DNA of 25,990 nucleotides. Source: a virus (Duplodnaviria; Caudoviricetes). This document shows, piece after piece, positions 1-25,272 of the stretch. The stretch covers positions 1-25,990 of the IMG/VR virus record IMGVR_UViG_3300032328_001501; one strand, given 5' to 3'. The position numbers and the translations under genes are program-made. Each line of letters starts with the position of its first letter. Position 1 is the stretch's first letter. The notes under the pieces were generated by a model. It searched no databases and had not been told where the DNA came from. It saw only the letters and a program-made list of their open reading frames with translations.

Positions 1-775
1 AAATAAACTTGGTGTTGCGTCGGTACTCGTCCCAACCCAGGTCGCGCATGACCTGAGCGGGATCGCAGCGGAAATTGAAATCATCGAATGGATTTGTGCT
101 GTAGTAGCCGTTATCGGCGGCTGGCGGTGCGGGTGGCTTTTCCTCTTTGATTACCAGGTTAAACGAGCGCATGAGCGCCAGCAAGGACTCCAGCTGTTGC
201 GCACTGATATTGGGGATTGTGTTATCGAAATTGGGGTGCACTTTGTAGCCAATGCATGGCGGCAGCAGGAAATAGCCGCCTTCGCCCCTTGTTTCCAAAA
301 AGCATTTGGTTTTCTGCTTTGGGTTTTCCAACAACTCTTCTTCTGTGGCGTAGCGTGATGCCAGCTTAAGATTGCCGGGGATCACCATTTCTGTGCAGCG
401 GAACAGCAGGTGTAGGCCTCCTGATGGCGTAATGTGCACGCGCATAATGGCTACCAGATCGGGGTAGAACAATGCGATGGCGTTCATTATCTCAACCTCT
501 GCGCCCGGCTTGTACTTGCAGTCGACATCGAATATGATCATGTTGCCGCTGACCTGGCCACACACACCAGCAACGGCCGATGTGTTGTACCGAATGTCCA
601 TCAGTTCGAACAGCTCGCTCTCCTTGATGATGCTTTTTTGGTATTTTTTCCATGGGCCGCATGGGGTTTTGGCCAGTCCTTCTTCTGTGTCTCGGTCGCG
701 GACTGGAATGATGCTCATGCCCCATTCCAAATACTTTTTTATTTCGACCCAAACCGGGCTTAACTCATTGAGCAT
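1..775 (-). CDS. Bifunctional DNA primase/polymerase (Prim-Pol) domain protein, 3' end runs off the window
   Basis: Not in the ORF track. Manual translation from ATG 775: MLNELSPVWVEIKKYLEWGMSIIPV...GVCGQVSGNMIIFDVD...HITPSGGLHLLF...LETRGEGGYFLLPP, with the DxD, TPSGGxH and D/ExRGxGGY motifs of Prim-Pol. It overlaps the helicase stop by 11 nt. Confidence 0.88.
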   Translation of the reverse strand, partial: MLNELSPVWVEIKKYLEWGMSIIPVRDRDTEEGLAKTPCGPWKKYQKSIIKESELFELMDIRYNTSAVAGVCGQVSGNMIIFDVDCKYKPGAEVEIMNAIALFYPDLVAIMRVHITPSGGLHLLFRCTEMVIPGNLKLASRYATEEELLENPKQKTKCFLETRGEGGYFLLPPCIGYKVHPNFDNTIPNISAQQLESLLALMRSFNLVIKEEKPPAPPAADNGYYSTNPFDDFNFRCDPAQVMRDLGWDEYRRNTKFI

Positions 776-2366
776 GTGTGGAAAGATTTTTCAGTTGAGT
801 TAATGAAGTTAAGCGGTCAAACGGTTTGACATTGTATGTATTGGGAACAATATTTTGGATGGGGTTGGTCCACCCCTTGAAAGCCTCTGCCAAATGCTGG
901 TACAGCGTTTCTTTTGCGCGGTCTTTATGCCACTGGTTGTACTTCTTGCCCACTGCCTGGCACCACTGTTTTGCTAGCACGTCGTATTTTTCGAGAATGA
1001 AAACGGCGTTATCATCCGTCATTTTGGGGACCGTGTTTTTGGCCTGCTCAGCCAGCATCCTGCCGATTTCGAAAAACGGGTAATACTCCTTTTTCATTTT
1101 ATGCTGCTCAATAAGCGCAACGGCGTCGATGTCTTTTGTAACCACGACGAATGCCCCCATTACTTCTTCCATTTCCTGCTCCTTCTTTGGGTACTCGTAG
1201 CCACACTGGGGGCATGCCCGGCAGTTATTGGAAATGATGCTATCGCACTGAGGACAGATCTTGATAGGCGCCACACCGTTGCCTTTGCTGGCCTTGGGTG
1301 GGTTGTGAAACATTTCTTCCCAGTTGCGGGGTTGGTTCCAATCGCCATGGGTGATGGCGTTGCCGCCCATGTCGATGATGCGGAACATGGCTTTGGCGTC
1401 GTGGGGCCGGGAGCCACGACCACACATTTGCAGCCAAAGCGGCATGCTCATGGTGGCTTTGTTGACGATAACGGTTTCTATGCTGGGTTCGTCGAAGCCG
1501 GTGGTGGCGATACCGACATTGCACAATACCGCTCCGCTTGTTTCGGCGTACCATTTCAGCACGCCTTGGCGCTCGGCGCTCTCGGTGTCTCCGTCGAAGT
1601 GGCGGCAGGGGATGCCGGCTTCGGAAAAAGCCTGGGCCACCAGCTGGCTATGCTCGACCGTTACATTGAACACAATGGCCTTGGTGCTGGCCGCGTATTT
1701 TTGGTAGGCTTCTACGGTATTGTTAATATGCCGTTTTTGGCTAAACGTCATTGCCATTAAGCCATCGTCAAAATCGCCCCTTTTGACGGTAAGGCTGGCT
1801 CTGTCAACGGTGTCCTTTGGTGCAATGGTTAGGTTTTGGCAAAGGTTGCCCATGCGGATGAGCTCGTGTATTTGAGGCCCGCACACAATATCCTGGTAGT
1901 ACATTTTGAGCGGCCTGGCTTTGTTGGCGCTGAGTGGGGTGGCGGTAACTCCTATGATAAGGGTGTTTGGAAACGCTTCGTGAATTTTACTGAAGTTGGC
2001 TATGTGAGCTTCGTCGATAATGATTAGGCCGACATTCTGCAACTGATCGATGCGCCGGTATGCGCTTTCGACCATGCCTACATAAACCTTGGCATCTGGT
2101 ATGTACCTCATGCCGGCAACGATGGGCTGGGCCACTACGCCAAAGGCTTTGTAGAGGGTGCGCCTGGTTTGCTGCAGCAGTTCTTTGCGGTGTACTAGGA
2201 TCAGGACGGATTTATTGGTGCGACTGCTGTAACGGTGGCTGATGGCGGAGAAAATGACGGTTTTGCCCGCACCGGTGGCCTGCTGTCCAAGCACCGTGCG
2301 AATGCCGTCGGCAATTTTCTGCGCTATACCGGCAACAAATGTTTCTTGATAGGGGCGGAGGGTCAT
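765..2366 (-). CDS. SF2 DEAH-box helicase with C-terminal Zn finger (RadD/phage replicative type)
   Basis: LRPYQ, ATGAGKT, IIIDEAH, TATP, TTGFD, QMCGRGSR motifs; CPQC...CPQC. Confidence 0.93.
   Translation of the reverse strand: MTLRPYQETFVAGIAQKIADGIRTVLGQQATGAGKTVIFSAISHRYSSRTNKSVLILVHRKELLQQTRRTLYKAFGVVAQPIVAGMRYIPDAKVYVGMVESAYRRIDQLQNVGLIIIDEAHIANFSKIHEAFPNTLIIGVTATPLSANKARPLKMYYQDIVCGPQIHELIRMGNLCQNLTIAPKDTVDRASLTVKRGDFDDGLMAMTFSQKRHINNTVEAYQKYAASTKAIVFNVTVEHSQLVAQAFSEAGIPCRHFDGDTESAERQGVLKWYAETSGAVLCNVGIATTGFDEPSIETVIVNKATMSMPLWLQMCGRGSRPHDAKAMFRIIDMGGNAITHGDWNQPRNWEEMFHNPPKASKGNGVAPIKICPQCDSIISNNCRACPQCGYEYPKKEQEMEEVMGAFVVVTKDIDAVALIEQHKMKKEYYPFFEIGRMLAEQAKNTVPKMTDDNAVFILEKYDVLAKQWCQAVGKKYNQWHKDRAKETLYQHLAEAFKGWTNPIQNIVPNTYNVKPFDRLTSLTQLKNLSTHAQ
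816..830. promoter_or_regulatory. Palindrome GTCAAAC-N-GTTTGAC, copy 1
   Basis: GTCAAACGGTTTGAC inside the helicase 3' end, about 40 nt upstream of the Prim-Pol start. Confidence 0.6.
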
Positions 2367-2569
2367 TTATTTGCGGTTACTTGTTTTTTTAACTGATTGT
2401 ACGATACGAATTTGCGATTGATGTACCAGCCTAGTGTGCTGCCCTTAACGACGGGACGCAGTGGGGAAAATTGCCAAGGCACAAACAGGCAGGTGGGTGG
2501 CATCCATGTACAAGCAACACCTTGTATGGTGATGTGGAATGTAAGTAGTTGTTTTTTAGTGGTTTGCAT
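2363..2569 (-). CDS. Small hypothetical protein
   Basis: 68 aa ORF; its stop overlaps the helicase start (ATGA). Confidence 0.65.
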   Translation of the reverse strand: MQTTKKQLLTFHITIQGVACTWMPPTCLFVPWQFSPLRPVVKGSTLGWYINRKFVSYNQLKKQVTANK

Positions 2570-2575
2570 TTTGGA

Positions 2576-2599
2576 GTTGCGTCAATACAATAGTTATGC
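2576..2599 (+). mobile_element. attI-like or half-attC recombination site at the left end of the cassette array
   Basis: GTTGCGTCAATACAATA-GTTATGC. It has an R-type GTT box at 2593 but no partner inverted arm upstream. Confidence 0.5.
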
Positions 2600-3607
2600 C
2601 CCATGCCAGTGAAGCTCTCCGATTGAACGGAAAATCTCATAAGCAACTTGTGGCACTATGGCGTTTCCTAATCCTTTAAGTCTGTCCACCCGACCGGATA
2701 GCCCATCAGCCACTCTACCCACTGCGGGTTCAGTTTCCCACCAGCTACTGCATTTAGGGGCAAAGAGTTCCGTTCCATCTGTGATTGGCTGCCGTTGTTC
2801 TTTGCATCCTGTGTCGTTGGAGTTGGTAGCATCCTGTAACCGTTCTCCATCGCTACATAATCGTTCAGGTTCCTGCTCCGCTTTTCCGGTGTCTGCCATC
2901 TGTGTCCTTCCCCTGTTCTGAAATCCCTGTTCTGTGGTGTCGGAAAGAATATCACTTGGTTTGCCAGTCCTGCGTTGCTGCTCCCCCCTGCTTTGTTCCT
3001 CAGTCGAACCGTTCCCGTTTCTGTTATGTAAAGTTTGTCCGTTTTCTTTTTGCTCATCTTGCCATCTGATGCTGTTGGAGTAAGCCACAATCCATACTCT
3101 ATCTCTGCGATGCCAAGCGTTTTTACTGCAAGCTGGAATAATATACGTTTCTGTGGTGTAGTTCTGTGCTTCCAAGTCAGATAGCACCGTGTCGAGTGCC
3201 ATTCCGATGATGCCAGTAACATTTTCCCCAACAACAAACTTTGGTTGCACCTCTCCGATAACTCTAAGCATTTCAGCCCAGAGGTAACGGTCATCTTCTT
3301 TGCCTTTTCGCTGCCCGGCAACGCTAAATGGTTGGCAGGGAAATCCTCCTGAAATAACATCAATTGTTCCATTGTATTCTTTTGCGTTAAATTCTTTAAT
3401 GTCTTCAAATCGTTTTGTATTCGGGAAATTCTTTGCTAATACTTTTCTACACCATTCGTCTTTTTCGCATTGAAAAATATTATTCCATCCCATCCATTGT
3501 GCAGCCAAATCAAAACCACCAATGCCCGAAAAAAGTGAGCCGTGTGAAAGGCACGAGGACATAACATCTGCTTTGTGCAAGTGGGGGTTCAGTGGTGTAT
3601 TGAGCAT
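2594..3607 (-). CDS. DNA (cytosine-5) methyltransferase, alpha-like chain (motifs I-VIII and X)
   Basis: SLFSGIGG (I), GGFPCQPFS (IV), ENV (VI), RDRVWIV (VIII), RLKGLGNAIVP (X); no motif IX in this frame. Start uncertain: TTG 3622, ATG 3607 or ATG 3562. Confidence 0.92.
   Translation of the reverse strand: MLNTPLNPHLHKADVMSSCLSHGSLFSGIGGFDLAAQWMGWNNIFQCEKDEWCRKVLAKNFPNTKRFEDIKEFNAKEYNGTIDVISGGFPCQPFSVAGQRKGKEDDRYLWAEMLRVIGEVQPKFVVGENVTGIIGMALDTVLSDLEAQNYTTETYIIPACSKNAWHRRDRVWIVAYSNSIRWQDEQKENGQTLHNRNGNGSTEEQSRGEQQRRTGKPSDILSDTTEQGFQNRGRTQMADTGKAEQEPERLCSDGERLQDATNSNDTGCKEQRQPITDGTELFAPKCSSWWETEPAVGRVADGLSGRVDRLKGLGNAIVPQVAYEIFRSIGELHWHGA
2668..3408 (-). CDS. Overlapping alternative-frame beta-like chain of the C5 methyltransferase (motif IX)
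   Basis: 246-codon ORF nested in the MTase gene on the same strand. It ends KLNPQWVEWLMGYPVGWTD (motif IX-like) and has three repeated [WFL]xPTPxxxD segments. Start may be ATG 3372. Confidence 0.75.
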   Translation of the reverse strand: MKTLKNLTQKNTMEQLMLFQEDFPANHLALPGSEKAKKMTVTSGLKCLELSERCNQSLLLGKMLLASSEWHSTRCYLTWKHRTTPQKRILFQLAVKTLGIAEIEYGLWLTPTASDGKMSKKKTDKLYITETGTVRLRNKAGGSSNAGLANQVIFFPTPQNRDFRTGEGHRWQTPEKRSRNLNDYVAMENGYRMLPTPTTQDAKNNGSQSQMERNSLPLNAVAGGKLNPQWVEWLMGYPVGWTDLKD

Positions 3608-3691
3608 TTGTATTTCTATCAATCATTTGTACTTAATTTAAAGTTTAGTGCTTCTAATCCCTTGCCTTCGCAAAGCCGTTGAACGTTAGCT
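3559..3691 (+). mobile_element. attC-like site 1 (133 bp)
   Basis: ACATAAC ... GTTAGCT end boxes; imperfect inverted arms GCTTTGTGCAAGTGGGG (3570-3586) and CCCTTGCCTTCGCAAAGC (3659-3676); internal similarity to site 2. Confidence 0.78.
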
Positions 3692-4027
3692 GCCATTTGC
3701 AGACGACAATACATATCTCGGCATTAGTTCCCCTTGATGCTTTTCAATACCCTTAAACACAAGTTTTTTATTTTCAATTAGCGGACATATTATTTCGTGC
3801 CTAACAAGGCAATCAGCATACATAAACATTCCACATTCAGGTAAAAACCAAACGCTATTAAACATTCCTTGTGGTTTGTAAAATTCATCTTCTAAAGACA
3901 ATTCGTGTTCTATTGCCTCAATAAGTTTTCGTTGGCTTAAATCTATTGAATACTTAAAAGTTTTACCACCAACACCAGATGACCTGTGTAAGCCATCGTT
4001 AAATCCGTTTAATAAATTGTTTTCCAT
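3686..4027 (-). CDS. Hypothetical protein, cassette 2 cargo
   Basis: 113 aa AT-rich ORF; the stop TAA is the complement of the TTA in the GTTAGCT box. Confidence 0.75.
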   Translation of the reverse strand: MENNLLNGFNDGLHRSSGVGGKTFKYSIDLSQRKLIEAIEHELSLEDEFYKPQGMFNSVWFLPECGMFMYADCLVRHEIICPLIENKKLVFKGIEKHQGELMPRYVLSSANGS

Positions 4028-4091
4028 TTTGTCAGTTTATAAGTTTACTTTTTTAATTAATTTGTCAGGTTATGGGCTGACGAAAAACGGC

Positions 4092-4219
4092 AGCTAACAA
4101 TATATTGGCAAAAGGCGGTCAGACGTGATACTATCAACATCAGTGGCTCATCCATCATTTGTGCTACTATCAACAGTAGTGCTACAAATCCCGCCCTTCG
4201 CCAATACAAAAAGTTATAA
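4092..4219 (+). mobile_element. attC-like site 2 (128 bp)
   Basis: AGCTAAC ... GTTATAA end boxes; arms TATTGGCAAAAGGCGG (4103-4118) and CCGCCCTTCGCCAATA (4191-4206) are complementary at 14 of 16 positions. Confidence 0.82.
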
Positions 4220-4225
4220 GCCATT

Positions 4226-4510
4226 TTAGAACAACGACCCGTTATCAAAAATCACAGGCAGACGATACCCTTCAAATCTAAAATCAAGTGAAACAAACTT
4301 TGGACTTTTACAACCAAACCATTTCCACCACAATTTTTTATACCAAGCACTTTTTGATAACAAACTTTTATACGTTTGTTCTAAATGTTTTGCCTGTTGC
4401 ATATTTCTTGAAACGATTATGCAATTAGGTCTTTTGATAGCCGACTGTAAAATCCAAGTTGTGTTTCCAGTTGCTCTTGTTGTTCTGATGATTTCTTCTA
4501 ATCTTGTCAT
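4226..4510 (-). CDS. Hypothetical protein, cassette 3 cargo (weak P-loop-like N-terminus RATGNTT)
   Basis: 94 aa AT-rich ORF between attC-like sites 2 and 3. Confidence 0.7.
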   Translation of the reverse strand: MTRLEEIIRTTRATGNTTWILQSAIKRPNCIIVSRNMQQAKHLEQTYKSLLSKSAWYKKLWWKWFGCKSPKFVSLDFRFEGYRLPVIFDNGSLF

Positions 4511-4554
4511 TGCTTTTAAATTAAATTGTTAAGCCAAACACGAATAAAAACGGC

Positions 4555-4582
4555 TTATAACAGTGGTTTGGCAAAAAGCCCC
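4555..4582 (+). mobile_element. Truncated attC-like site 3 (left half only)
   Basis: TTATAAC-AGTG-GTTTGGCAAAAAGCC resembles the left arm of site 2; no right arm found downstream. Confidence 0.65.
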
Positions 4583-4710
4583 ATCAGGGCAATGGCAGCG
4601 TGGTTTATTCTAATGACCCCTGAAGCACCAAAAGAAATTTTCGGTAATTTTTTGGACGTGTTGCCGCTTTGCTTTGGCAAGGTGGCGTTGTCGAAGATGT
4701 GGAGGTTCAT
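4555..4710 (-). pseudogene. Probable truncated phage gene (MNLHIFD...ALMGL) running into attC-like site 3
   Basis: The last residues (FAKPLL*) are encoded by the attC arm and the stop lies in the TTATAAC box. The ORF can be extended upstream to ATG 4836. Confidence 0.45.
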
Positions 4711-4864
4711 AGTGGTGTTTATTTGAGGTGAAAAAATGCTGCCAACTTTTGGCGCTTCAGACAGCCATCGTAGATAACGTTGGTGTTCGTTTTCTACGGA
4801 TGGTTTTTTCTGAGCGAGATCAAGTAGGGTTAACATGGGCTGGCTGGTGTTTTTATTTTGAGAA

Positions 4865-5038
4865 TTACTTCCCCTTAAACCGCTTCGCCTTAACCCATTT
4901 CTGCCGGCCTGTTTGTTGAAGCCATTGGCCGTAATCTTTTGGCTTTAAGCAGGTGTCAGTTCGCACAAATTTTGCATCGGCGGTGCTTTGAGCGCCCATC
5001 ATAGACGCAATTGCTGCTAATTCTCCTATGTTTTTCAT
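4865..5038 (-). CDS. Small hypothetical protein (57 aa)
   Basis: Manual translation MKNIGELAAIASMMG...KRFKGK*; fits the operon gap. Confidence 0.6.
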   Translation of the reverse strand: MKNIGELAAIASMMGAQSTADAKFVRTDTCLKPKDYGQWLQQTGRQKWVKAKRFKGK

Positions 5039-5058
5039 TTTGCTATTTTAAAACTGTT

Positions 5059-5424
5059 TTAAAAAGGTATATCACCGCCACTGGTCGGTGCCGGCTGCAT
5101 GCCTGCGCTCGGTGGGAATTGCGGCGCCTGCTGCTGATCATTGAAAACAAACTCTTTGGCGCCACCGCAGTACTCCTTCGGCTGCCCCTTTTGGTCCTTG
5201 CCCTGCGCCAGAGAAATGGTGTGGGTTTCACCGATTGGGCTGACGGCCCTGCGCTGGGCAATGGCTACCTTCAGCTCCGTGGTATTCTTTGTCGGGTGCT
5301 GGTAAATGTGTGGCCCCTGTAGTGCGCTGAGGTTTACCCAGCGTTGGCCAGTTTTCTGATTTACGATGATGTGGCCCTTAAAGGCTTCATCGAGAATGAT
5401 GTTTGCGTTTAGAATGCTTGACAT
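5059..5424 (-). CDS. Putative single-stranded DNA-binding protein
   Basis: 121 aa with a Q/P-rich flexible tail ending DIPF; located next to the exonuclease and annealase genes. Confidence 0.65.
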   Translation of the reverse strand: MSSILNANIILDEAFKGHIIVNQKTGQRWVNLSALQGPHIYQHPTKNTTELKVAIAQRRAVSPIGETHTISLAQGKDQKGQPKEYCGGAKEFVFNDQQQAPQFPPSAGMQPAPTSGGDIPF

Positions 5425-5501
5425 GGTTTTTAGCCGGTCGGATTGGGCCGGGACTTTTTGTTTTGATTCTTAATAAATAATACTGAAGTGCATGCTTGTA
5501 A

Positions 5502-6056
5502 CTAACTTTTTGAAAACCCATACTGCAAAATCTTTTTGTGCCAATAATCTTCGTTAAACGTTATGGCTGCCACATCAGGCTTTTCGGTTTTGGTGTTAAC
5601 CGATGCGATAAACGCTCGCGGCGCTCCAATTGCTTTGGCATAGCCAGTGAGCTGCAACGGGTAGCCAAAATGGTCCATAACTTTTTTCAGGTCCTCGCCG
5701 GTAACTTTTAAGTCCACCACCAGCTTTCCGGGTAGGGCTAAGTCGATGCGGCCCTTGTAGGGCATTACGAAACCTTCGTGCTCAAACTCAGCGGTCACTG
5801 TTAGTTCGGGCTTCATAAACGGCAGCAGCGGCCCGACCATTTCCTTTAGCTTTAAAGCCAGCTTTTTTGCATTGGGGTTGGTGTGTGGGAATTTGTGCGG
5901 CTCCAACAGATAGTTGTGAACCTCGGTACCCAACGACATCTTTGCCGTTGCCGTGAAGGGGCCGCCACCTTTTAAGCCGCTGTAGCTGTACTGCGGCAAA
6001 GCCAGGTATTGGTCAAATGGCAGCCCCTCGTAATATCTGACATTGCTGACCGTCAC
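5502..6056 (-). CDS. PD-(D/E)XK exonuclease, RecE/ExoVIII-like
   Basis: SYSGLK, LGTEVH, E...KGRID...VVDLK, Y..QL..Y motifs. Confidence 0.82.
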   Translation of the reverse strand: MTVSNVRYYEGLPFDQYLALPQYSYSGLKGGGPFTATAKMSLGTEVHNYLLEPHKFPHTNPNAKKLALKLKEMVGPLLPFMKPELTVTAEFEHEGFVMPYKGRIDLALPGKLVVDLKVTGEDLKKVMDHFGYPLQLTGYAKAIGAPRAFIASVNTKTEKPDVAAITFNEDYWHKKILQYGFSKS

Positions 6057-7108
6057 TTCTCTACCTCCTCATATTCAAGGCCAGTGACACGCTCTCCGGT
6101 GGCTGAGGCGTGCTGCCCCAAAGCTGCCGCCATTTGCCCCAGGCTTAGCTTATCCCAGGTTTTTACCCGAATGAAGGATGCGCAGTCCGCCCAGTTTCTT
6201 AGGAACCCGGTGATGACATTCTTGGCCCACTGCTGGTCGGCGGCCCCTACTACTACCTGCAGCTTCTTGCGGACTACCGGCCCCTGCACCAATGCGCTGA
6301 CCTCGGCCGTGGCCACCAGTGTGTTGGTAGCGGTTTCAATGGCTACGTCTTGCTGTACCGCCTGCTGGCGTACTGCTGATGCGGCCCCTTCTGCCGCCAG
6401 TGCTGCTTCTGCGTTGGCAAGGTCAAACTCGAAGTGGCTCCATTTGTCCATGGCTTCGGCAATGGCCTTGGCTTGGTCTTCGGCAATGGTGTACTGCGGC
6501 ACATCAGAAAAGATTGCTGTGGCTTCTTCCGGCGTTAAATACACCAGGTTGAATTTGTTGAACGGCCCCCGCGGTTCGGCTAACAATATTTTGTGCAGAT
6601 CTTCAAACGGAACAAGCGACCGCTGCTGCAACGACATACGGTAGGCCCCGGCGGTGAGGTTGTGCATGCGCAGCCGATACTCAGCGGCAAGGCGATAGTT
6701 TTCGCTGCTGATGAATGCCCGAAGGTTGGCCTTCTCCGCTTCTTTGGCATTGGCTTTTGCCACCTTTTCCGCTTCTTTCTTACGAACAGCCAGTTCGTGG
6801 GCTGCCGCCAGACTGATCAGGCTGTCATTGCGCTTTTCAAACTCCATGGCTGGCTTGATCAGTTTGGCCTCAATCATGGTCGTGAACGTCAAACGGTTTG
6901 ACTTATCACTTGCGGCCTGGGCTTTCGCCTCTTTGATCTTGGATTGCACCGACGTTAGGTTTTCGTCTGCCTCAATCTTGGCCAAGATACCTTGCACTGC
7001 CAGCTCGCCCTTGGCCAGAGCATCGAACAATTGCGCCTTGGTGTTGGCGACTTGTAGCCATCCCTGCTGCTGTGCCGGCGTGGCTACTACTGCTACTTCT
7101 GTTGTCAT
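6053..7108 (-). CDS. Alanine-rich coiled-coil hypothetical protein of the recombination module
   Basis: 351 aa ORF with 4-nt overlaps to both neighbours. Confidence 0.8.
   Translation of the reverse strand: MTTEVAVVATPAQQQGWLQVANTKAQLFDALAKGELAVQGILAKIEADENLTSVQSKIKEAKAQAASDKSNRLTFTTMIEAKLIKPAMEFEKRNDSLISLAAAHELAVRKKEAEKVAKANAKEAEKANLRAFISSENYRLAAEYRLRMHNLTAGAYRMSLQQRSLVPFEDLHKILLAEPRGPFNKFNLVYLTPEEATAIFSDVPQYTIAEDQAKAIAEAMDKWSHFEFDLANAEAALAAEGAASAVRQQAVQQDVAIETATNTLVATAEVSALVQGPVVRKKLQVVVGAADQQWAKNVITGFLRNWADCASFIRVKTWDKLSLGQMAAALGQHASATGERVTGLEYEEVEK
6888..6902. promoter_or_regulatory. Palindrome GTCAAAC-N-GTTTGAC, copy 2 (intragenic)
   Basis: Exact GTCAAACGGTTTGAC. Confidence 0.55.
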
Positions 7109-8079
7109 AATTCGACATCATTTAGTGGTGAAAAAATGTTTGCTTGTATTGCGGGTGTGGGTGTGCGCTCAATGCGTCCGACCGATTGTTGCTGCAATAA
7201 GGTGGTTGCCGGTGCCGTTCCCCATGGGATTTCGTCGTCGCCTTGCTGCATCTGCATGTTTCCAGGGTAATTTAAGGCTGATGCTACTGCTGCATTTGCA
7301 GGGGCTTGGTTGATTTGCTGTATCTGCGTTGGGGTTCCCGCTGCTACCAGCTTGCCCGTTTGCAGAAATGCGGCAACTACTTCCTGCGTGTTCATCTGAG
7401 GCAGCGCCGATACATCGGTTATTGGCGGTTGCTCCAGCTGTACGCTCCCCAGTGCTGCCTTAAGGCGCTCTTGCTCAAGTAGCTGCTCAATGTCGCTTTG
7501 GAGTACCTGCTTTGGGGGTTCCGACGGACCTTGCGCCGTTGCCAGCTCTCTGTACCTGCTGCCAACAAACTCTTGAATGTCGGACTTGTTTAGGCCGCCA
7601 CCAAACAGCGTGCCTAGCTTTTCAGCGGCATTACTGAGGGCATAGCTGGCTGCCGATGGAAACGCCATCATGACTGCCGCTGCTTTGATTTCAGAAAGGT
7701 TGCCACCCTGCGCACCTGAGTTCAGCTGCACATTGACGGCTCCGGCTCCGTCTTTATGAAGCCAGGTGTTGGTACCTGGTATGCAGTAGTGTAACCGCAC
7801 CTGCACGGCTATGCTGTTAAAAACGTCTTTGTAGGAAACGATTTCGTCCCACCAATACAGCCCGAAGATGCGGGTTAGCAGGAACCTGACTTTGTCGATG
7901 GGCAGGTACTTTAATGGTACGGTTTGATTTCCGCTTTTGACCGTCACGGTGTTGTGGGTTTTCACCCAACTTTGATGCACTGGCTTGTTTAAAAGCTCCA
8001 GCAGGGCATCGTGCTTGAAAAGGTCTTCCTGATGCAGCTCCGCAAGCGTCGGCAGCTGATGGGTTGATGCAACTTGCAT
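7105..8079 (-). CDS. Rad52/Sak-like single-strand annealing protein
   Basis: KYLPIDKVRFLLTRIFG...W, DGAGA, A.SYALSNAAEKLG pattern; long disordered C-terminus. Confidence 0.72.
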   Translation of the reverse strand: MQVASTHQLPTLAELHQEDLFKHDALLELLNKPVHQSWVKTHNTVTVKSGNQTVPLKYLPIDKVRFLLTRIFGLYWWDEIVSYKDVFNSIAVQVRLHYCIPGTNTWLHKDGAGAVNVQLNSGAQGGNLSEIKAAAVMMAFPSAASYALSNAAEKLGTLFGGGLNKSDIQEFVGSRYRELATAQGPSEPPKQVLQSDIEQLLEQERLKAALGSVQLEQPPITDVSALPQMNTQEVVAAFLQTGKLVAAGTPTQIQQINQAPANAAVASALNYPGNMQMQQGDDEIPWGTAPATTLLQQQSVGRIERTPTPAIQANIFSPLNDVEL

Positions 8080-11301: not shown

Positions 11302-11652
11302 ATGAAAACACTCGTATTGATTGCAGCGTTAGCGCTGACTGGCTGCGCTTCGCAGCAGAAGGTGGCAGAAAGCCTGAAAGGCACAGACATTGCCGAGATT
11401 GTGCGCCAGTACGGCCCGCCCACCAGCAAAACAGACGACGCCAACGGGGGCGAGATATACACCTATGCTTCTCAGGGCAGCAACCCTTTTACGGGGCAGG
11501 CCATGATGGTGTACGAGCACATTTATGTTGGCCCCGACCGCAAGGTTTACCACTACATGAAAAACAGTGAAAACGTGGCACCTACCCAGGTGCAACAAGT
11601 AAAGCCATACAAAGCTCCGCCAGTTAGTACCGCCACTGGATACGGCAACTAG
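11302..11652 (+). CDS. Lipoprotein co-transcribed with the repressor
   Basis: Signal peptide MKTLVLIAALALTG-C with lipobox; YGPP motif. Confidence 0.8.
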   Translation: MKTLVLIAALALTGCASQQKVAESLKGTDIAEIVRQYGPPTSKTDDANGGEIYTYASQGSNPFTGQAMMVYEHIYVGPDRKVYHYMKNSENVAPTQVQQVKPYKAPPVSTATGYGN

Positions 11653-12698
11653 CCCCACTTCTCCATTTCTTTGTCCACCCTTTGGTTTATGATTTTGTAG
11701 TAAATCATGGTGGTGCGCAGGTCGCTATGCCCCAGCAACTTGCTTGCCACTTCTGCACTGATGCCAAAATTGGCGCACTGCACCGCAAACGTATGCCGCC
11801 CGGTATGAAAGGTTAGCGGTTTATCAATGCCGCACACATGGGCAATAGCCTTTAGGTATTGGTTGCATTTTTGGTTACTGAATACCGGCACCGCTGGCCA
11901 CGTGTTGATCAGGTTTTGAATGCGCTCGTTCACTTTGATGCTTACCACTTCGCCCGTCTTGGTGGTGTAGAGTATCAATCGGCCTTCTTGTATTTGCTTG
12001 CCAAAGTCTAATGCCGCCACGTCGCTGTACCTCAGCCCGGTGTAGCAGCTGAACAAAAACCACTTGGCCACGTGCATCAGGGTGGGCGCATTTTCCATGG
12101 CCGCAACGGCCGCTATTTCATCCATCGTAAGCCAGGTGCGCTGCGGGTTGAGCTTGGCCGGTTTGGTGTAGATATCGAAAGGGTTGGTGCTGATCTGCTG
12201 GTGCTTGACTGCATCGTGCATTACTGCACTCACAAACGACACGCGTTTTAAAACGCCTGGTCCATTGCAGCCATCCTGCCTGCACCAGTCTTCGTAATTT
12301 AGCAACCATGCCGGGGTTAGCTTATCCAGCGTTACCAGCTCGTCAAACCGAAGTACTTGCCGCAGCATGGATTGATAAGCCCGCATGGTGTTGCGGCTCT
12401 TGGTGCGCTCCCATCTGCCCATGCACTCAATTGCATACCGCTTGAACGTTATGGCGCTGCTGAGTGCCTCGGGTGCCGCTGTTGCCGCTTGCACCAACTT
12501 CAGCGCCAGCATCTTGTTTATCTGTGCCGCCTGTGGATGGCTGGGTTTTACTTTCTGCTTATCCCGGTCCCACTGTTCAGGTTTTAGCTTGATGCCCAAC
12601 GCCTCAAAGCGCCGGGTGGATTTGTCGCGGTAAACGATGCGCAAAAGGCATAGGCCGCTTTTGTCGGGCCGGTTCCGCAGCTCGTAGCTTATTGTCAT
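11649..12698 (-). CDS. int: Tyrosine integrase (Bacteroidota type with N-terminal arm-binding domain)
   Basis: TGLRYSD, KT, FHTGRHTF, LLGHSDLRTTMIY catalytic motifs. Confidence 0.96.
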   Translation of the reverse strand: MTISYELRNRPDKSGLCLLRIVYRDKSTRRFEALGIKLKPEQWDRDKQKVKPSHPQAAQINKMLALKLVQAATAAPEALSSAITFKRYAIECMGRWERTKSRNTMRAYQSMLRQVLRFDELVTLDKLTPAWLLNYEDWCRQDGCNGPGVLKRVSFVSAVMHDAVKHQQISTNPFDIYTKPAKLNPQRTWLTMDEIAAVAAMENAPTLMHVAKWFLFSCYTGLRYSDVAALDFGKQIQEGRLILYTTKTGEVVSIKVNERIQNLINTWPAVPVFSNQKCNQYLKAIAHVCGIDKPLTFHTGRHTFAVQCANFGISAEVASKLLGHSDLRTTMIYYKIINQRVDKEMEKWG

Positions 12699-15495: not shown

Positions 15496-15797
15496 GTTAC
15501 ATGGTTGTTACATACTTTTTTTGGCTGTAACCCTTGCAAATGCTCAATTGTTACAACTGTTACAGACTTTTAGCCCCTATAATCACATAGAGGATAAAAA
15601 TTATATATTTTCATTTTCAAAAATTATTGAGGTATAATACCTTGCATTACATAGTACTATAAGTCGTTTTCTTTTCAAAATGAAAACATATTATATTTTC
15701 CATACAAGCTTTAAAAGGGGAAAAAAGTCTGTAACATTGTAACAATTGAGCATTTGCAAGGGTTACAGCGTTTTGAAGTCTGTAACAACCATGTAAC
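15496..15797. repeat. Long inverted repeat with TGTAAC iterons around an AT-rich core; candidate replication origin
   Basis: Arms 15496-15571 and 15723-15797; perfect 33-bp core 15524-15556 / 15737-15769; inner IR 15608-15622 / 15672-15686. Confidence 0.8.
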
Positions 15798-21858: not shown

Positions 21859-24800
21859 ATGATACAACCGGTACAGCAAACATTTGAGGGATTGTTGAAC
21901 AGTGATGATTCGCCCGAGTACATTGCTGCGAACCAGTATGTGAATGCCTTAAACTTTCGGTTTGGCAAAAGCCGCGCCGGGAAGTTTAACCGGTTTGAGC
22001 TGATAGAAAGCAACAGGGAAGTGGTAAATGTCGATTTGTTTGCCGGCACAAACAAACTTGTGGGGAAGCTTGAAGACTCCGCGAAAGACAGGATTGTATA
22101 CCTGGTGTGGAATAGCGCGGGCCACTCTGGCATTTGGGTGGTTGATGCCAGCGAAACCATCTACTTGGCGATAGAAGACGCCGATACTGAAGTAGGGCTT
22201 GGGTTTACAAAGGACAATTACATACACAGCGTGGCCTTAGTAGGCGATTTGCTGTATTGGGTGAATGGTGGTGAGCCATCGCGGTTAAACCTTGAAGCAG
22301 CGCTGAAAGCCAGCAACGCGGGATATTCAACGACGGTTACTGCTTACACGTTCCCAATAAAGGAGACTACCTACAGGTTGATACGCAAACCGCCTATAAA
22401 CATTCCCATTGCGGTAAAAGTGATTGATGCCACGATAAACGTAAACCAAACTAAGGACACCGGGTTTAAGTTTTGCTGGCGGTACAACTACAGGGATGGA
22501 GAAACCAGTACGTTATCGGCGTTGAGCCGATACACGCCACCCAATACTCCGGCCGAAACCACGGCTGGCTACAATGCCATAGACGTAACGTTGCCAACCG
22601 CTGAGATCATAGAGCAAGACGTGATGATAGTTGAGCTGGTGGCGGTGTACCCCATAGATCAAACCTACTTTGTAATAAAGGCCTGGGACAGACAAAACAC
22701 AGCTGACGCCACAGCCATCACCAACCACAATGCCGGCACTGCGTTAACGTTCCGTTTCAGCAATAATACTGTTGGTTACGCACTAGACAACGCTACCAAG
22801 GTAAAGCCATTTGACAGCGTGCCACACGAAGCCTGGGCCATGACCATTGCCAAAAACAGGTTGATATTGGGTAGGACCAAGTTGGGGCGTAACACACCAA
22901 AAACAAGCTCACTGGCATTTACAGTGCAAAGTGCTTCGAGCCTAACCAACCCCATTGGCGAATGGGTGAAAATAGACTCTACTTATTACCAAACATTTCC
23001 AAGTTTAATTTCAGGCTTGTCGTCAAATTTCTATTGTTTTCATTTGCGGCAAACCTACGGCAGCTATGAAGAAGGGTATTACTACACGCCGGCCGAAACC
23101 AGTAATTCTACGGGCCCAGCATCCGTTGACCTTACGACTTGGGTGTTTATGACTGAAAAGCTGGCCACGTTTATAAACCCGATATGCGTGCCCCAGGTTA
23201 TTTGGGCTTATCGGGTGTTGGTTTTCCCCTACAATGCGGCGACATCATCGGTAACGTTGATAAACGCGAGTGTGCCTGCGACAAACATTACCATAACGGC
23301 CGGTGGATCTACGGCAAGCATATTGAAAAGCGATGCCGGTTATGTAGGTGGAGTGGTGTTTTACGACAAATGGATGCGGCAGTGTGAAGTGGTTGACGAT
23401 GGTGGCGCCAAGGCCACCACGCCGGCGCGGCTGTATGCCGACGCAGGCAGCTACAACTACGGGCTGGCATGGGCATTGAGCAATGCAGCCGCGACAACAG
23501 AAATACCCACATGGGCCAGCTATTACGCCATTGTGTGCAGCAAGTGCTTGCGCACAAACTTCTTTTTGCAATCGAGGGCCAGTCACATTATCTATGCCAC
23601 ACTAAACAGCGCAACGGATGAGTATGATGTAATTACAGCAGGAAACAACGTTTATGCCCGAACCAATGCAGGTATTGCGGTAAAAGCTGATTTGCTTATT
23701 GGTTACGGCCTTGGCTACAGTTTTAATGAAGGCGATATATTGACGATTTTTATTTCGACAAGCCGCTATCAGGTGCCTGTTAAAGCCGTTCAGGGTGATT
23801 GGGTAATTGGCGAACTGGTTGATGTAGGCAATACCACGAGCCTAGCCGCTCTCTTCGAAATTTTTAGCCCGGCAATAAATAGCAGTGATCGATTTTATTA
23901 CGAGGTTTCGGATTTGCTGCCTATACAACTGCCAGGCACAGCCAGCAGAACGTACTCCACCCTGAGCGGCACCATCCCCGGCGACGTGTTTTTGATAACC
24001 CGGAACGACGGTACCAATAATTACTTTGTGGAAGCCATGAGCCCCAACGACAAGGTGTGGAAGGTATGGACAACGAACCACGGCAGGCCCCAGGTGCGCG
24101 GCGGCATAGGCGAAGTTTACAGCCCAACAGGCATGAGTCACAGTAATGTGTACATACCCGGTACCAGAACCAATGGGTTATCGAGTTTTGATGCATTGGA
24201 CTTTACACTTTTGCCGCTGGAAATGACCAGTCTTCAGTATTTGCAATTGACGACCAAGGTGCAGCAGGAAGGCTCGGTGCTTTTGGCCATTGGGGAAGAC
24301 GATACCGCCAGTATTTATTTGGGTGAATCGCAGGTGTTTGATGCATCAGGGAACAGCTTTTTGGCCACCAGTGACCGTTTTATTGGCCAGATAAACCCGC
24401 TGAGGGGCGGCTACGGCACCCGGCACCCCGAGAGTGTAGCAATGCTTGACGGTGTTGTGTTGTGGTTGAACGTGGTGCAAGGCAAGGTGGTACAATACAG
24501 CAATGCGGGCCTGGAGCCGGTAAGTCGGTTTAAAATGGAGCAGTTTTGGGCGTTGTGGTGTACGGAATATTTGAGCAAACCCGCTGCCTGGTGGACCGAT
24601 ACCGACCAACGGAACCTAATCATTGGCGGCATCGATGTTTTCCACAGAGAATACCTGGTAGCGTTGCCTCAGATACTAGAAACCTTTAGGGATGAGAACA
24701 ACGGATGGGATATTTACAGCGGGCAAGCGGCTACAGCGGTGTACAAAGTGGGAGAAAATCGCTGGCAAGGCTTGTATGGGTATTTAGCCGAAGGCTTTTG

Positions 24801-25272
24801 CATCAATAGAAATGTTTTGCACACATTTAGTGATGGCAAAGTGTATGTGCATGATGTTGAAAGCAGTGCGTTGATGTTTTATGGCCAACAGCAGGATGCG
24901 GTGGTAGTAATAAGCGTGAGCGGTCCCCAGTTTTTGCTTACCAAAGCGTATAAAAACATCAGCATAGCCGCCAGCGAAGGCCCCGACTATGTAAAAGCAA
25001 GGACGACGCTGCCTTACGATCAAGAAACCCAGCTGGATGGCGCCGACTTCGACGCAACAGAAGGCAAATACTACAGCCCATGGATGCGCAACCTTAATAC
25101 ACCTGGTATGGAGCCTGCTGTAGCCATTGTGCGCGGTGAAGTGATGCGCGGACAAACCATACTTGTTCAAATAACTTATGAAGGCAAGAATAACAGTGCA
25201 TATAGAAGTAAACGTATATTTGTAAATGCTGTAAATTTGGGAATTGTTTTAAGTAAGGGGCATACTTTTTAA
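21859..25272 (+). CDS. Tail stabilisation/muzzle protein (P22 gp10-like, crAss-like)
   Basis: 1137 aa beta-rich; GLLNSD...YVNALN.R, NRLILG, GVVFYDK, YG..HPES, EGKYY motifs; follows the ring genes. Confidence 0.7.
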   Translation: MIQPVQQTFEGLLNSDDSPEYIAANQYVNALNFRFGKSRAGKFNRFELIESNREVVNVDLFAGTNKLVGKLEDSAKDRIVYLVWNSAGHSGIWVVDASETIYLAIEDADTEVGLGFTKDNYIHSVALVGDLLYWVNGGEPSRLNLEAALKASNAGYSTTVTAYTFPIKETTYRLIRKPPINIPIAVKVIDATINVNQTKDTGFKFCWRYNYRDGETSTLSALSRYTPPNTPAETTAGYNAIDVTLPTAEIIEQDVMIVELVAVYPIDQTYFVIKAWDRQNTADATAITNHNAGTALTFRFSNNTVGYALDNATKVKPFDSVPHEAWAMTIAKNRLILGRTKLGRNTPKTSSLAFTVQSASSLTNPIGEWVKIDSTYYQTFPSLISGLSSNFYCFHLRQTYGSYEEGYYYTPAETSNSTGPASVDLTTWVFMTEKLATFINPICVPQVIWAYRVLVFPYNAATSSVTLINASVPATNITITAGGSTASILKSDAGYVGGVVFYDKWMRQCEVVDDGGAKATTPARLYADAGSYNYGLAWALSNAAATTEIPTWASYYAIVCSKCLRTNFFLQSRASHIIYATLNSATDEYDVITAGNNVYARTNAGIAVKADLLIGYGLGYSFNEGDILTIFISTSRYQVPVKAVQGDWVIGELVDVGNTTSLAALFEIFSPAINSSDRFYYEVSDLLPIQLPGTASRTYSTLSGTIPGDVFLITRNDGTNNYFVEAMSPNDKVWKVWTTNHGRPQVRGGIGEVYSPTGMSHSNVYIPGTRTNGLSSFDALDFTLLPLEMTSLQYLQLTTKVQQEGSVLLAIGEDDTASIYLGESQVFDASGNSFLATSDRFIGQINPLRGGYGTRHPESVAMLDGVVLWLNVVQGKVVQYSNAGLEPVSRFKMEQFWALWCTEYLSKPAAWWTDTDQRNLIIGGIDVFHREYLVALPQILETFRDENNGWDIYSGQAATAVYKVGENRWQGLYGYLAEGFCINRNVLHTFSDGKVYVHDVESSALMFYGQQQDAVVVISVSGPQFLLTKAYKNISIAASEGPDYVKARTTLPYDQETQLDGADFDATEGKYYSPWMRNLNTPGMEPAVAIVRGEVMRGQTILVQITYEGKNNSAYRSKRIFVNAVNLGIVLSKGHTF

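Follow-up and report, generated by a model that had tools for sequence, protein, structure and literature searches.

A putative integron-like array with inverted gene cassettes in a candidate Bacteroidota phage

Introduction

The cassette array described here occupies positions 2577 to 4576 of the virus record IMGVR_UViG_3300032328_001501 (Duplodnaviria; Caudoviricetes), the complete 25,990 bases of which are referred to below as the window. Its closest described counterparts are the integrons, exemplified by the IntI1 and VchIntIA systems, and the clusters of attC sites lacking an integrase (CALINs). Integron cassettes display AAC/GTT end boxes, inverted arms and complementary ends, and the better-folding strand is rich in G:T pairs and presents the longer spacer first, as in the bottom strand of aadA7 (PMC5027507, PMC4792948, PMC5371416). 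An excess of G:T pairs and a lower energy mark the bottom strands of classical attC sites, and the orientation of cassettes is held to be fixed by the choice of strand (PMC5027507). Extrahelical bases are read by the IntI insertion (PMC4792948). By the detection tools currently in use, integrons are held to be rare in Bacteroidota, with very few in Bacteroidetes (PMC9024848).

The integron features listed above recur in the array and its relatives. Likewise, one end is occupied by a half-site with a 5-nt spacer, and the recombinase associated with the site family contains the N-terminal domain PF13495. The array differs from integrons in that its genes are borne by the presumed bottom strand and are preceded, on their 5' side, by the site core; the spacer asymmetry is of 2-4 nt and no extrahelical base is present in attC2. 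Moreover, the recombinase of the family falls below the TIGR02249 cut-off and misses about 35 residues of the IntI insertion, and in hosts its gene points the same way as the cassettes rather than diverging from them. The array would operate as integron cassettes do; it departs from them in the IntI insertion, the extrahelical base and the strand of the genes, and is thus a variant and not a member. A CALIN is defined by at least two attC sites with no integron integrase nearby; the window, a partial contig, shows two complete but atypical sites, and no recombinase of the family.

The locus probably represents three cassettes joined by integron-like sites of a Bacteroidota family. Its genes occupy the best-folding strand, opposite to host cassettes, and an IntI-related tyrosine recombinase acting in trans probably cleaves the cassettes on this strand and integrates them. 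The proposed mechanism can be outlined as follows. The minus strand would act as the 'bottom' strand and be cut between A and C of TAA/C. The cassette unit would consist of the site core, a leader, the gene and a terminal TAA, the core preceding the gene on its 5' side and not following it at the 3' end. Entry of new cassettes would take place at an attI-like site, termed site A, at the promoter-distal end. Transcription of all genes would proceed from the leftward operon of the phage; placed in a host array, they would be in antisense and therefore silent. A box or the trailer could supply the stop codon, and the core and leader could supply the translation start because they sit upstream of the gene.

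Results and Discussion

Sites and cassettes of the window

The array is composed of the following elements:

2577..2602, plus strand: site A, terminal attI-like half-site (L-like box, 5-nt spacer, G/TTA at 2593)
2594..3607, minus strand: cassette 1, main chain of a C5-cytosine DNA methyltransferase (PF00145, E 2e-44; TIGR00675, above cut-off)
3556..3694, plus strand: attC1 (TAAC 3562, GTTA 3685, spacers of 4 and 8 nt; arms pair poorly)
3686..4027, minus strand: cassette 2 gene, 113 aa, no family; its stop is the TAA of the attC1 box
4089..4222, plus strand: attC2 (TAAC 4095, GTTA 4213, spacers of 4 and 6 nt)
4226..4510, minus strand: cassette 3 gene, 94 aa, no family, in a reused shell
4552..4576, plus strand: site D, remnant of attC3 joined to an upstream phage open reading frame (the box, the spacer and approximately 16 nt of arm are retained)

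The three cassette open reading frames (ORFs) are all on the minus strand, co-directional with the flanking phage genes as stated in the initial annotation, the coordinates of which were all right. GTTA boxes are located at 2593, 3685 and 4213 and TAAC boxes at 3562, 4095 and 4558. Within cassettes 1, 2 and 3, the boxes at either end are complementary to each other at 8/10, 10/10 and 10/10 positions, respectively; among the 2,671 background GTT/AAC pairs of the window, 2.6% reach 8/10 and 0.15% reach 10/10. The spacers noted earlier before GTT in the two complete sites are indeed of 8 nt (attC1) and 6 nt (attC2). A 4-nt spacer after TAAC had been claimed for all three sites; it is present in attC1 and attC2 and applies to the third by analogy only, its partner arm being missing.

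Site A had been overlooked as a terminal half-site. It is devoid of a partner arm, fits the base profile of terminal half-sites (34 phage and 15 host examples) and is likely the insertion point of the array. attC2 forms a good hairpin (-23.3 kcal/mol on the minus strand versus -16.6 on the plus strand). Its core is 91-92% identical in L027, L033 and L034 (L-numbers designate the loci collected as described below) and accompanies the 5' end of the cassette 2 gene; its spacer is of 6 nt, versus 7 nt in relatives. attC1 is a poor hairpin, with about -8 to -9 kcal/mol on either strand and a slightly lower value on the plus strand. Its arm near 3685 matches L026/L206 at 0.95 and the other arm any collected site at no more than 0.75; on this comparison attC1 is apparently a chimera of two family cores. 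The full core of the third site, of about 85 nt, is seen in L329/L330 with the same gene (97% amino acid identity), the identity with the window ending at 4576. The site cores of the window are nearer to phage copies (0.84-0.92) than to host copies (0.67-0.70).

Gene orientation in phage and host arrays

In the following, B designates the strand with the longer spacer first, equivalent to the minus strand of the window, and T the opposite strand. Sites of the family were collected with strand-specific patterns that leave the genes untouched. The genome set comprises 123 loci of the approximately 1,300 estimated for one pattern (6 of 64 parts scanned, full flanks for 80 loci), and the viral set 163 loci, the last scan representing 125 of about 760 estimated. 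Sites were located with a custom hairpin detector; a generic repeat search gave one relevant family only. At its loosest setting the detector returned 1.3 false sites per shuffled 26 kb and mis-paired attC1; the counts reported here were obtained at stricter settings (score of at least 12, asymmetry of at least 2), which degenerate sites escape. Cassettes were dereplicated at 80% identity and the gene strand was called by ORF length, not by a gene finder. Pairs of neighboring sites more than 3,000 or less than 150 nt apart, as well as five pairs of opposite polarity, were left out of the orientation table.

The gene lies on B in 72 phage cassettes and on T in 4, with 25 ambiguous, versus none on B, 49 on T and 8 ambiguous among host cassettes (Fisher p 2e-30). 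The initial annotation had proposed that the phage cassettes are read antisense to the usual direction, and the orientation that this requires is borne out: host arrays of the same family carry their genes on the plus-equivalent strand (49/49), phage arrays on the minus-equivalent strand (72/76). When every cassette is forced to its longest ATG frame, 94 of 101 phage cassettes are called B and 52 of 57 host cassettes T. At the level of loci, 37 of 46 phage arrays have a B majority and 2 a T majority, and 23 of 24 host arrays have a T majority and none a B majority. Further host DNA contributed 11 more T cassettes and 4 ambiguous ones. Adjacent sites of opposite polarity are limited to four phage pairs and one host pair. 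The inverted gene orientation of phage cassettes is therefore well supported. Since only one pair of homologous host and phage cassette proteins (33%) was found, the two gene pools are largely separate. A few host-oriented cassettes occur in viral contigs (L029/L032, L164 and L200) and may reflect exchange between host and phage or contigs of non-viral origin.

The strand that folds and probably recombines

The polarity assigned to the sites in the initial annotation is upheld by the wobble skew, by the linkage of cores to genes and by where the attI-like half-site lies. Within the arms, G:T pairs are distributed 315:20 between B and T in 181 phage sites and 253:26 in 144 host sites; in paired cassette end boxes the ratios are 54:4 and 41:4, respectively. 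Fold energy is lower on B in 82% of phage and 72% of host sites. The skew is a DNA-level signal, because hosts show it on the antisense strand. Regarding linkage, phage pairs sharing the 5' flank of the gene in different contexts have cores at least 0.8 identical in 12 of 24 cases. None of 4 phage pairs with a common 3' flank reaches this identity, and 0.1% of pairs taken at random do; the larger set of cassettes with the shell of cassette 3, described below, leads to the same conclusion. Finally, arrays terminate on the 3' side of B in a non-hairpin half-site, represented in the window at 2593. These three lines of evidence, none of which is based on spacer length, make it likely that B is the strand that folds and recombines.

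Reused shells and cassette mobility

Each cassette of the window, or its shell, recurs with other neighbors in unrelated phage contigs. The junctions with the new neighbors are at the AAC box on the 3' side of the gene, where only a few bases of sequence are shared, and from these comparisons the cassettes appear to move as units between arrays. The shell of cassette 3 (shell 3) was searched for with the first 23 nt of this cassette, which yielded 19 viral and 51 metagenome loci. The resulting set contains 46 distinct complete cassettes including that of the window; 14 of the 72 matches are without a partner box, mostly at contig ends. An ATG is found 50-53 nt past the box in 46/46 cassettes, the stop codon 13 nt ahead of the box end in 36/46, and the last 15 nt are common to 40/46. 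The encoded proteins nevertheless form 22 families without any BLASTP link at 1e-3, so that the shell junctions are fixed within a few bases across 22 unrelated gene families. Downstream neighbors differ in 45 of the 46 cassettes. Upstream, 36 cassettes share one core, of which 5 more, that of the window among them, retain a stub of 10-16 nt; 2 have another core, and in 3 the sequence is too short for a call. The shell of cassette 2 contains two protein families in 8 cassettes, and replaced interiors are likewise observed in public contigs.

A copy of the cassette 3 gene outside of a site was not found (two loci, both in the shell). A new cassette could form by the joining of an ORF to the trailer-core-leader ends, since these constitute a single piece in the circle, and the sequences may be read as the result of such shell-based cassette genesis.

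Two junctions are located at the inner (L) arm instead of the AAC box, namely at 4207-4212, the attC2 spacer, which resembles the spacer of terminal half-sites, and at 4562-4576 in site D. The latter is cut after 16 nt and four other shell 3 loci are cut likewise at 10-15 nt. These L-arm junctions may reflect joining by the L box or by microhomology at the first entry of a cassette into a phage. The copy of cassette 3 in L329/L330 (around 1365 and 1795) has AGC in place of AAC at both ends and is possibly immobilized.

The associated recombinase

A tyrosine recombinase gene (PF13495 and PF00589) ends just ahead of the half-site on T at 4 of 15 host half-sites and additionally in L386, and the recombinase was found in 4 of 5 array-bearing host genomes. 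The recombinase of the family scores 149-187 bits versus a TIGR02249 cut-off of 265. The alignment with VchIntIA consists of two blocks and skips about 35 residues, which correspond to the region of the IntI insertion (PMC4792948). Related genes (28-40% identity) are located on B downstream of the phage arrays of L170, L024/L177, L006 and L209; in L383 such a gene lies 57 nt past the half-site. A related recombinase is present in 3 of 5 array-bearing virus records, three of the five having been chosen for having one. The phage layout is thus cassettes, half-site and recombinase on one strand, and the array of the window has lost the enzyme or never had it. From the position of the gene, we infer that an IntI-related recombinase acts on these sites.

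Short phage recombinases of about 270-300 aa were observed on the gene strand after the arrays of L383 (1498-2301), L024 (1634-2422), L209 (1042-1827) and L006 (5340-5981); that of L383 is without the N-terminal extension of the host enzymes. The integrase of the window (11649-12698) was considered as the family enzyme and ruled out, being of the Arm-binding prophage type. The top tyrosine recombinase matches in five host genomes are XerD-like, with no sites nearby. Five identical 316-aa recombinase copies are present in G002, where two recombinase copies have no detected sites within the 19 kb downstream. In L114, the sites at 2025, 5841 and 10467 share an identical 80-nt flank. This flank and the G002 copies possibly belong to an insertion element that targets these sites.

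Starts, stops and products of the cassette genes

The boxes had been proposed to supply the start and stop codons of the cassette genes, which holds in part. The stops of the methyltransferase (2594-2596) and of cassette 2 (3686-3688) are indeed the complement of the TTA of a box, and the methyltransferase start is likely within a site. Cassettes 2 and 3 have an ATG of their own and the cassette 3 stop lies outside of the box. The own ATG of cassette 2 is 71 nt past the box, and homologues in five other cassettes have the same leader; in cassette 3 the ATG ends a 51-nt leader after the box and the stop is 13 nt ahead of the box end. The TAA of the box is the stop codon in 13/49 phage versus 3/41 host cassettes and is accordingly a minority feature; 13 further stops of the 49 phage cassettes are at a fixed distance of 13 nt ahead of the box end.

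Two candidate starts of the methyltransferase had been pointed out, ATG 3607 inside attC1 and the box ATG at 3562; either one is in frame with the gene. In all seven copies of the methylase cassette, the frame is open for at least 19 codons into the site across several core types, with an in-site start codon 45-57 nt upstream (ATG in five copies, TTG in two), and the L004 methylase cassette is devoid of the box ATG. ATG 3607 is favored on account of the conserved open frame and in-site start and of the L004 copy, and the enzyme probably starts there on this comparative evidence. Over the 49 phage cassettes, an in-frame ATG inside the upstream site is present in 14/49, versus 31/98 in the other frames, so that no general enrichment is observed. 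The in-site ATG is the only one within 90 nt in 7/49 phage cassettes. In 10 of the 25 ambiguous phage cassettes, the ATG-initiated ORF exceeds the length of the cassette, which places the start in the site.

Two further ORFs overlap the array:

2668..3408, minus strand: nested second ORF in another frame of the methyltransferase (first ATG 3372; phrog_1008, E 3e-36)
4555..4836, minus strand: upstream phage ORF, 93 aa, which reads through the arm stub and stops on the TAA in the site D box

A nested ORF was found in 8 of 11 sequences examined. In the two-chain C5 methyltransferase M.EcoHK31I (PMC2836561), the second chain is likewise encoded wholly inside the main gene in another frame. By analogy, the nested ORF is predicted to be such a second chain; unlike in M.EcoHK31I, the chain is predicted here from the nested ORF only and no restriction partner is present in the cassette.

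Protection from host restriction is the established role of orphan methylases of phages, and the methyltransferase likely shields the phage DNA in this way. None of 35 proteins homologous to the cassette 3 product is named beyond hypothetical. The upstream ORF has no Pfam or PHROG match, and when longer versions of its C-terminal 51 aa were sought, only the ORF itself was returned.

Comparison with published phage arrays

Integrase-less attC clusters carrying DNA methyltransferases, as in the window, were described in the phage CALINs of Qi et al. 2023 (PMC9892861). One of their sites, P12002L_attC1, has the anatomy of the present family and its predicted bottom strand is B. The detector located six sites in P12002L versus two in that work, with three inter-site stretches assigned to B and one ambiguous, and the annotated methylase genes are on B. 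Their P12002L_attC2 seems to be a terminal half-site taken in the reverse direction. The sections of their article covered here make no mention of inverted genes, of a cognate recombinase from Bacteroidota or of reused shells.

In PH101, IntI1 was more efficient on the strand cloned as bottom than on its top counterpart (PMC9892861), and the annotated genes gp133-gp135 have this tested bottom strand as their sense strand. One site with its leader occurs in two copies in this phage, ahead of genes unrelated to each other. L396 (PH101; 4229-5875) and L394 (2400-4420) show attC sites of classical type whose annotated genes are on the bottom strand that was tested, together with one site and leader repeated ahead of unrelated genes. 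Inversion is thus seen with classical attC sites too, in a single cultured phage for which strand data exist, and does not extend to all phages. The accessible portions of PMC8618304 and PMC5371416 have no bearing on the inversion. No description of a Bacteroidota site family with this recombinase, of an inverted phage cassette class or of reused shells was found in the literature covered, which left out most subscription papers.

Weighing of the explanations

A number of observations weigh against an integron-like mechanism. P12002L_attC1, the only full site of the family tested in print, was not recombined by IntI1 (PMC9892861), which in our own reading was the wrong enzyme for it, and TJE1, also studied in that work, has the canonical orientation. 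The recombinase lacks the IntI insertion and was absent within the flanking DNA examined at 11 of 15 host half-sites, from 2 of the 5 virus records with arrays that were searched, one being 97% complete, and, by tblastn, from the 26-kb window, a partial contig. No extrahelical base is seen in the fold of attC2, the only site examined in this respect, the stem being unbroken beside the spacer. The choice of strand is consequently left without an explanation, as neither the extrahelical base nor the insertion is there. The wobble skew of attC1 is opposite to that of the family (1:3). Lastly, in the other 12 of the 24 pairs sharing a 5' flank the cores are less than 0.8 identical, and the methylase cassettes of L001 and L325, about 94% identical over their aligned parts, have other cores on both sides; cores are therefore also exchanged at some rate.

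Some of these observations would be accommodated if the conserved repeats were joints for homologous recombination and mRNA structures with translation starts, shuffled by phage recombinases with no site-specific enzyme. The missing cognate recombinase in the window and the chimeric attC1 are in line with this explanation, as is the fact that the well-folding strand is the mRNA strand in phages, where 10 of the 25 ambiguous cassettes start in the site. It is nonetheless unlikely: the junctions with new neighbors are at the AAC box with few shared bases, the same wobble skew is present on the antisense strand of hosts, beyond the reach of RNA folding, and a tyrosine recombinase and a half-site flank the arrays. 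We regard as quite improbable an enzyme that uses both strands alike, by which a box-to-box mobile unit with free exchange of cores would owe its orientation to selection for expression of ordinary cassettes inserted in reverse. Such an enzyme would agree with the loss of the insertion that reads extrahelical bases (PMC4792948), with near-identical methylase cassettes having different cores and with the 2 of 46 shell 3 cassettes having another core. A flipped cassette would however flip its site as well, yet the genes are inverted relative to their sites; adjacent sites keep one polarity (apart from the four phage pairs and the host pair), the linkage of cores is one-sided and the gene pools are largely separate. 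That the array is simply what decay has left of a host array, acquired by chance on a single occasion and devoid of phage-specific design, is hardly credible. Damage to attC1 and site D and the missing recombinase would be expected of such a remnant, but the cores are closer to phage than to host copies, the cassettes and shells recur in unrelated phage contigs and this orientation is found in 0/49 host cassettes. An integron-like array acted upon by an IntI-related recombinase remains our preferred explanation.

Other features of the window

The genes of the window include a prophage-type integrase, an antirepressor, a helicase and virion genes, and the phage is temperate. The array is located in the leftward operon, the replication operon of the phage, between a region similar to single-stranded DNA-binding protein and the helicase. 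The site family and the relatives of the methylase suggest a Bacteroidota host. A public contig matches 2300-4940 with two differences and is possibly the source of the window. A scan of positions 1-8000 with Rfam gave no match at E 1, and blastn of the array against cultured phages returned short methylase matches only. Promoter and terminator scans were at chance level, with a sigma-70 model that is unsuited to Bacteroidota.

The gap between divergent operons (15524-15770) contains a 33-bp perfect inverted repeat around approximately 170 AT-rich bases, with many GTTACA/TGTAAC hexamers, and is possibly an origin, an operator or an invertible switch. A 1,137-aa virion protein (21859-25272) has a weak match to the C-terminal domain of the crAss muzzle (PF25729, E 1e-4, below cut-off) in this integrase-carrying phage.

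Conclusions

Copies of a single site family abound in the genomes of Bacteroidota (an estimated 1,300 or so stretches for one pattern) and in their phages (about 760), the genes facing opposite ways in the two pools. As a tentative extension, doubtful in its full form, Bacteroidota phages might run an integron-like system of their own, with an insertion-less relative of IntI and back-to-front cassettes, in which unrelated ORFs are dropped start-to-stop into a fixed shell. If so, the shell would represent an observable intermediate in the making of cassettes, and the inversion would keep the phage and host cassette pools mutually silent while a single enzyme is shared. To our knowledge, how cassettes are made is an open question, on which the reused shell offers a concrete handle. 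If the mechanism holds, a modular phage system trading methylases and small accessory genes would have been overlooked by standard annotation.

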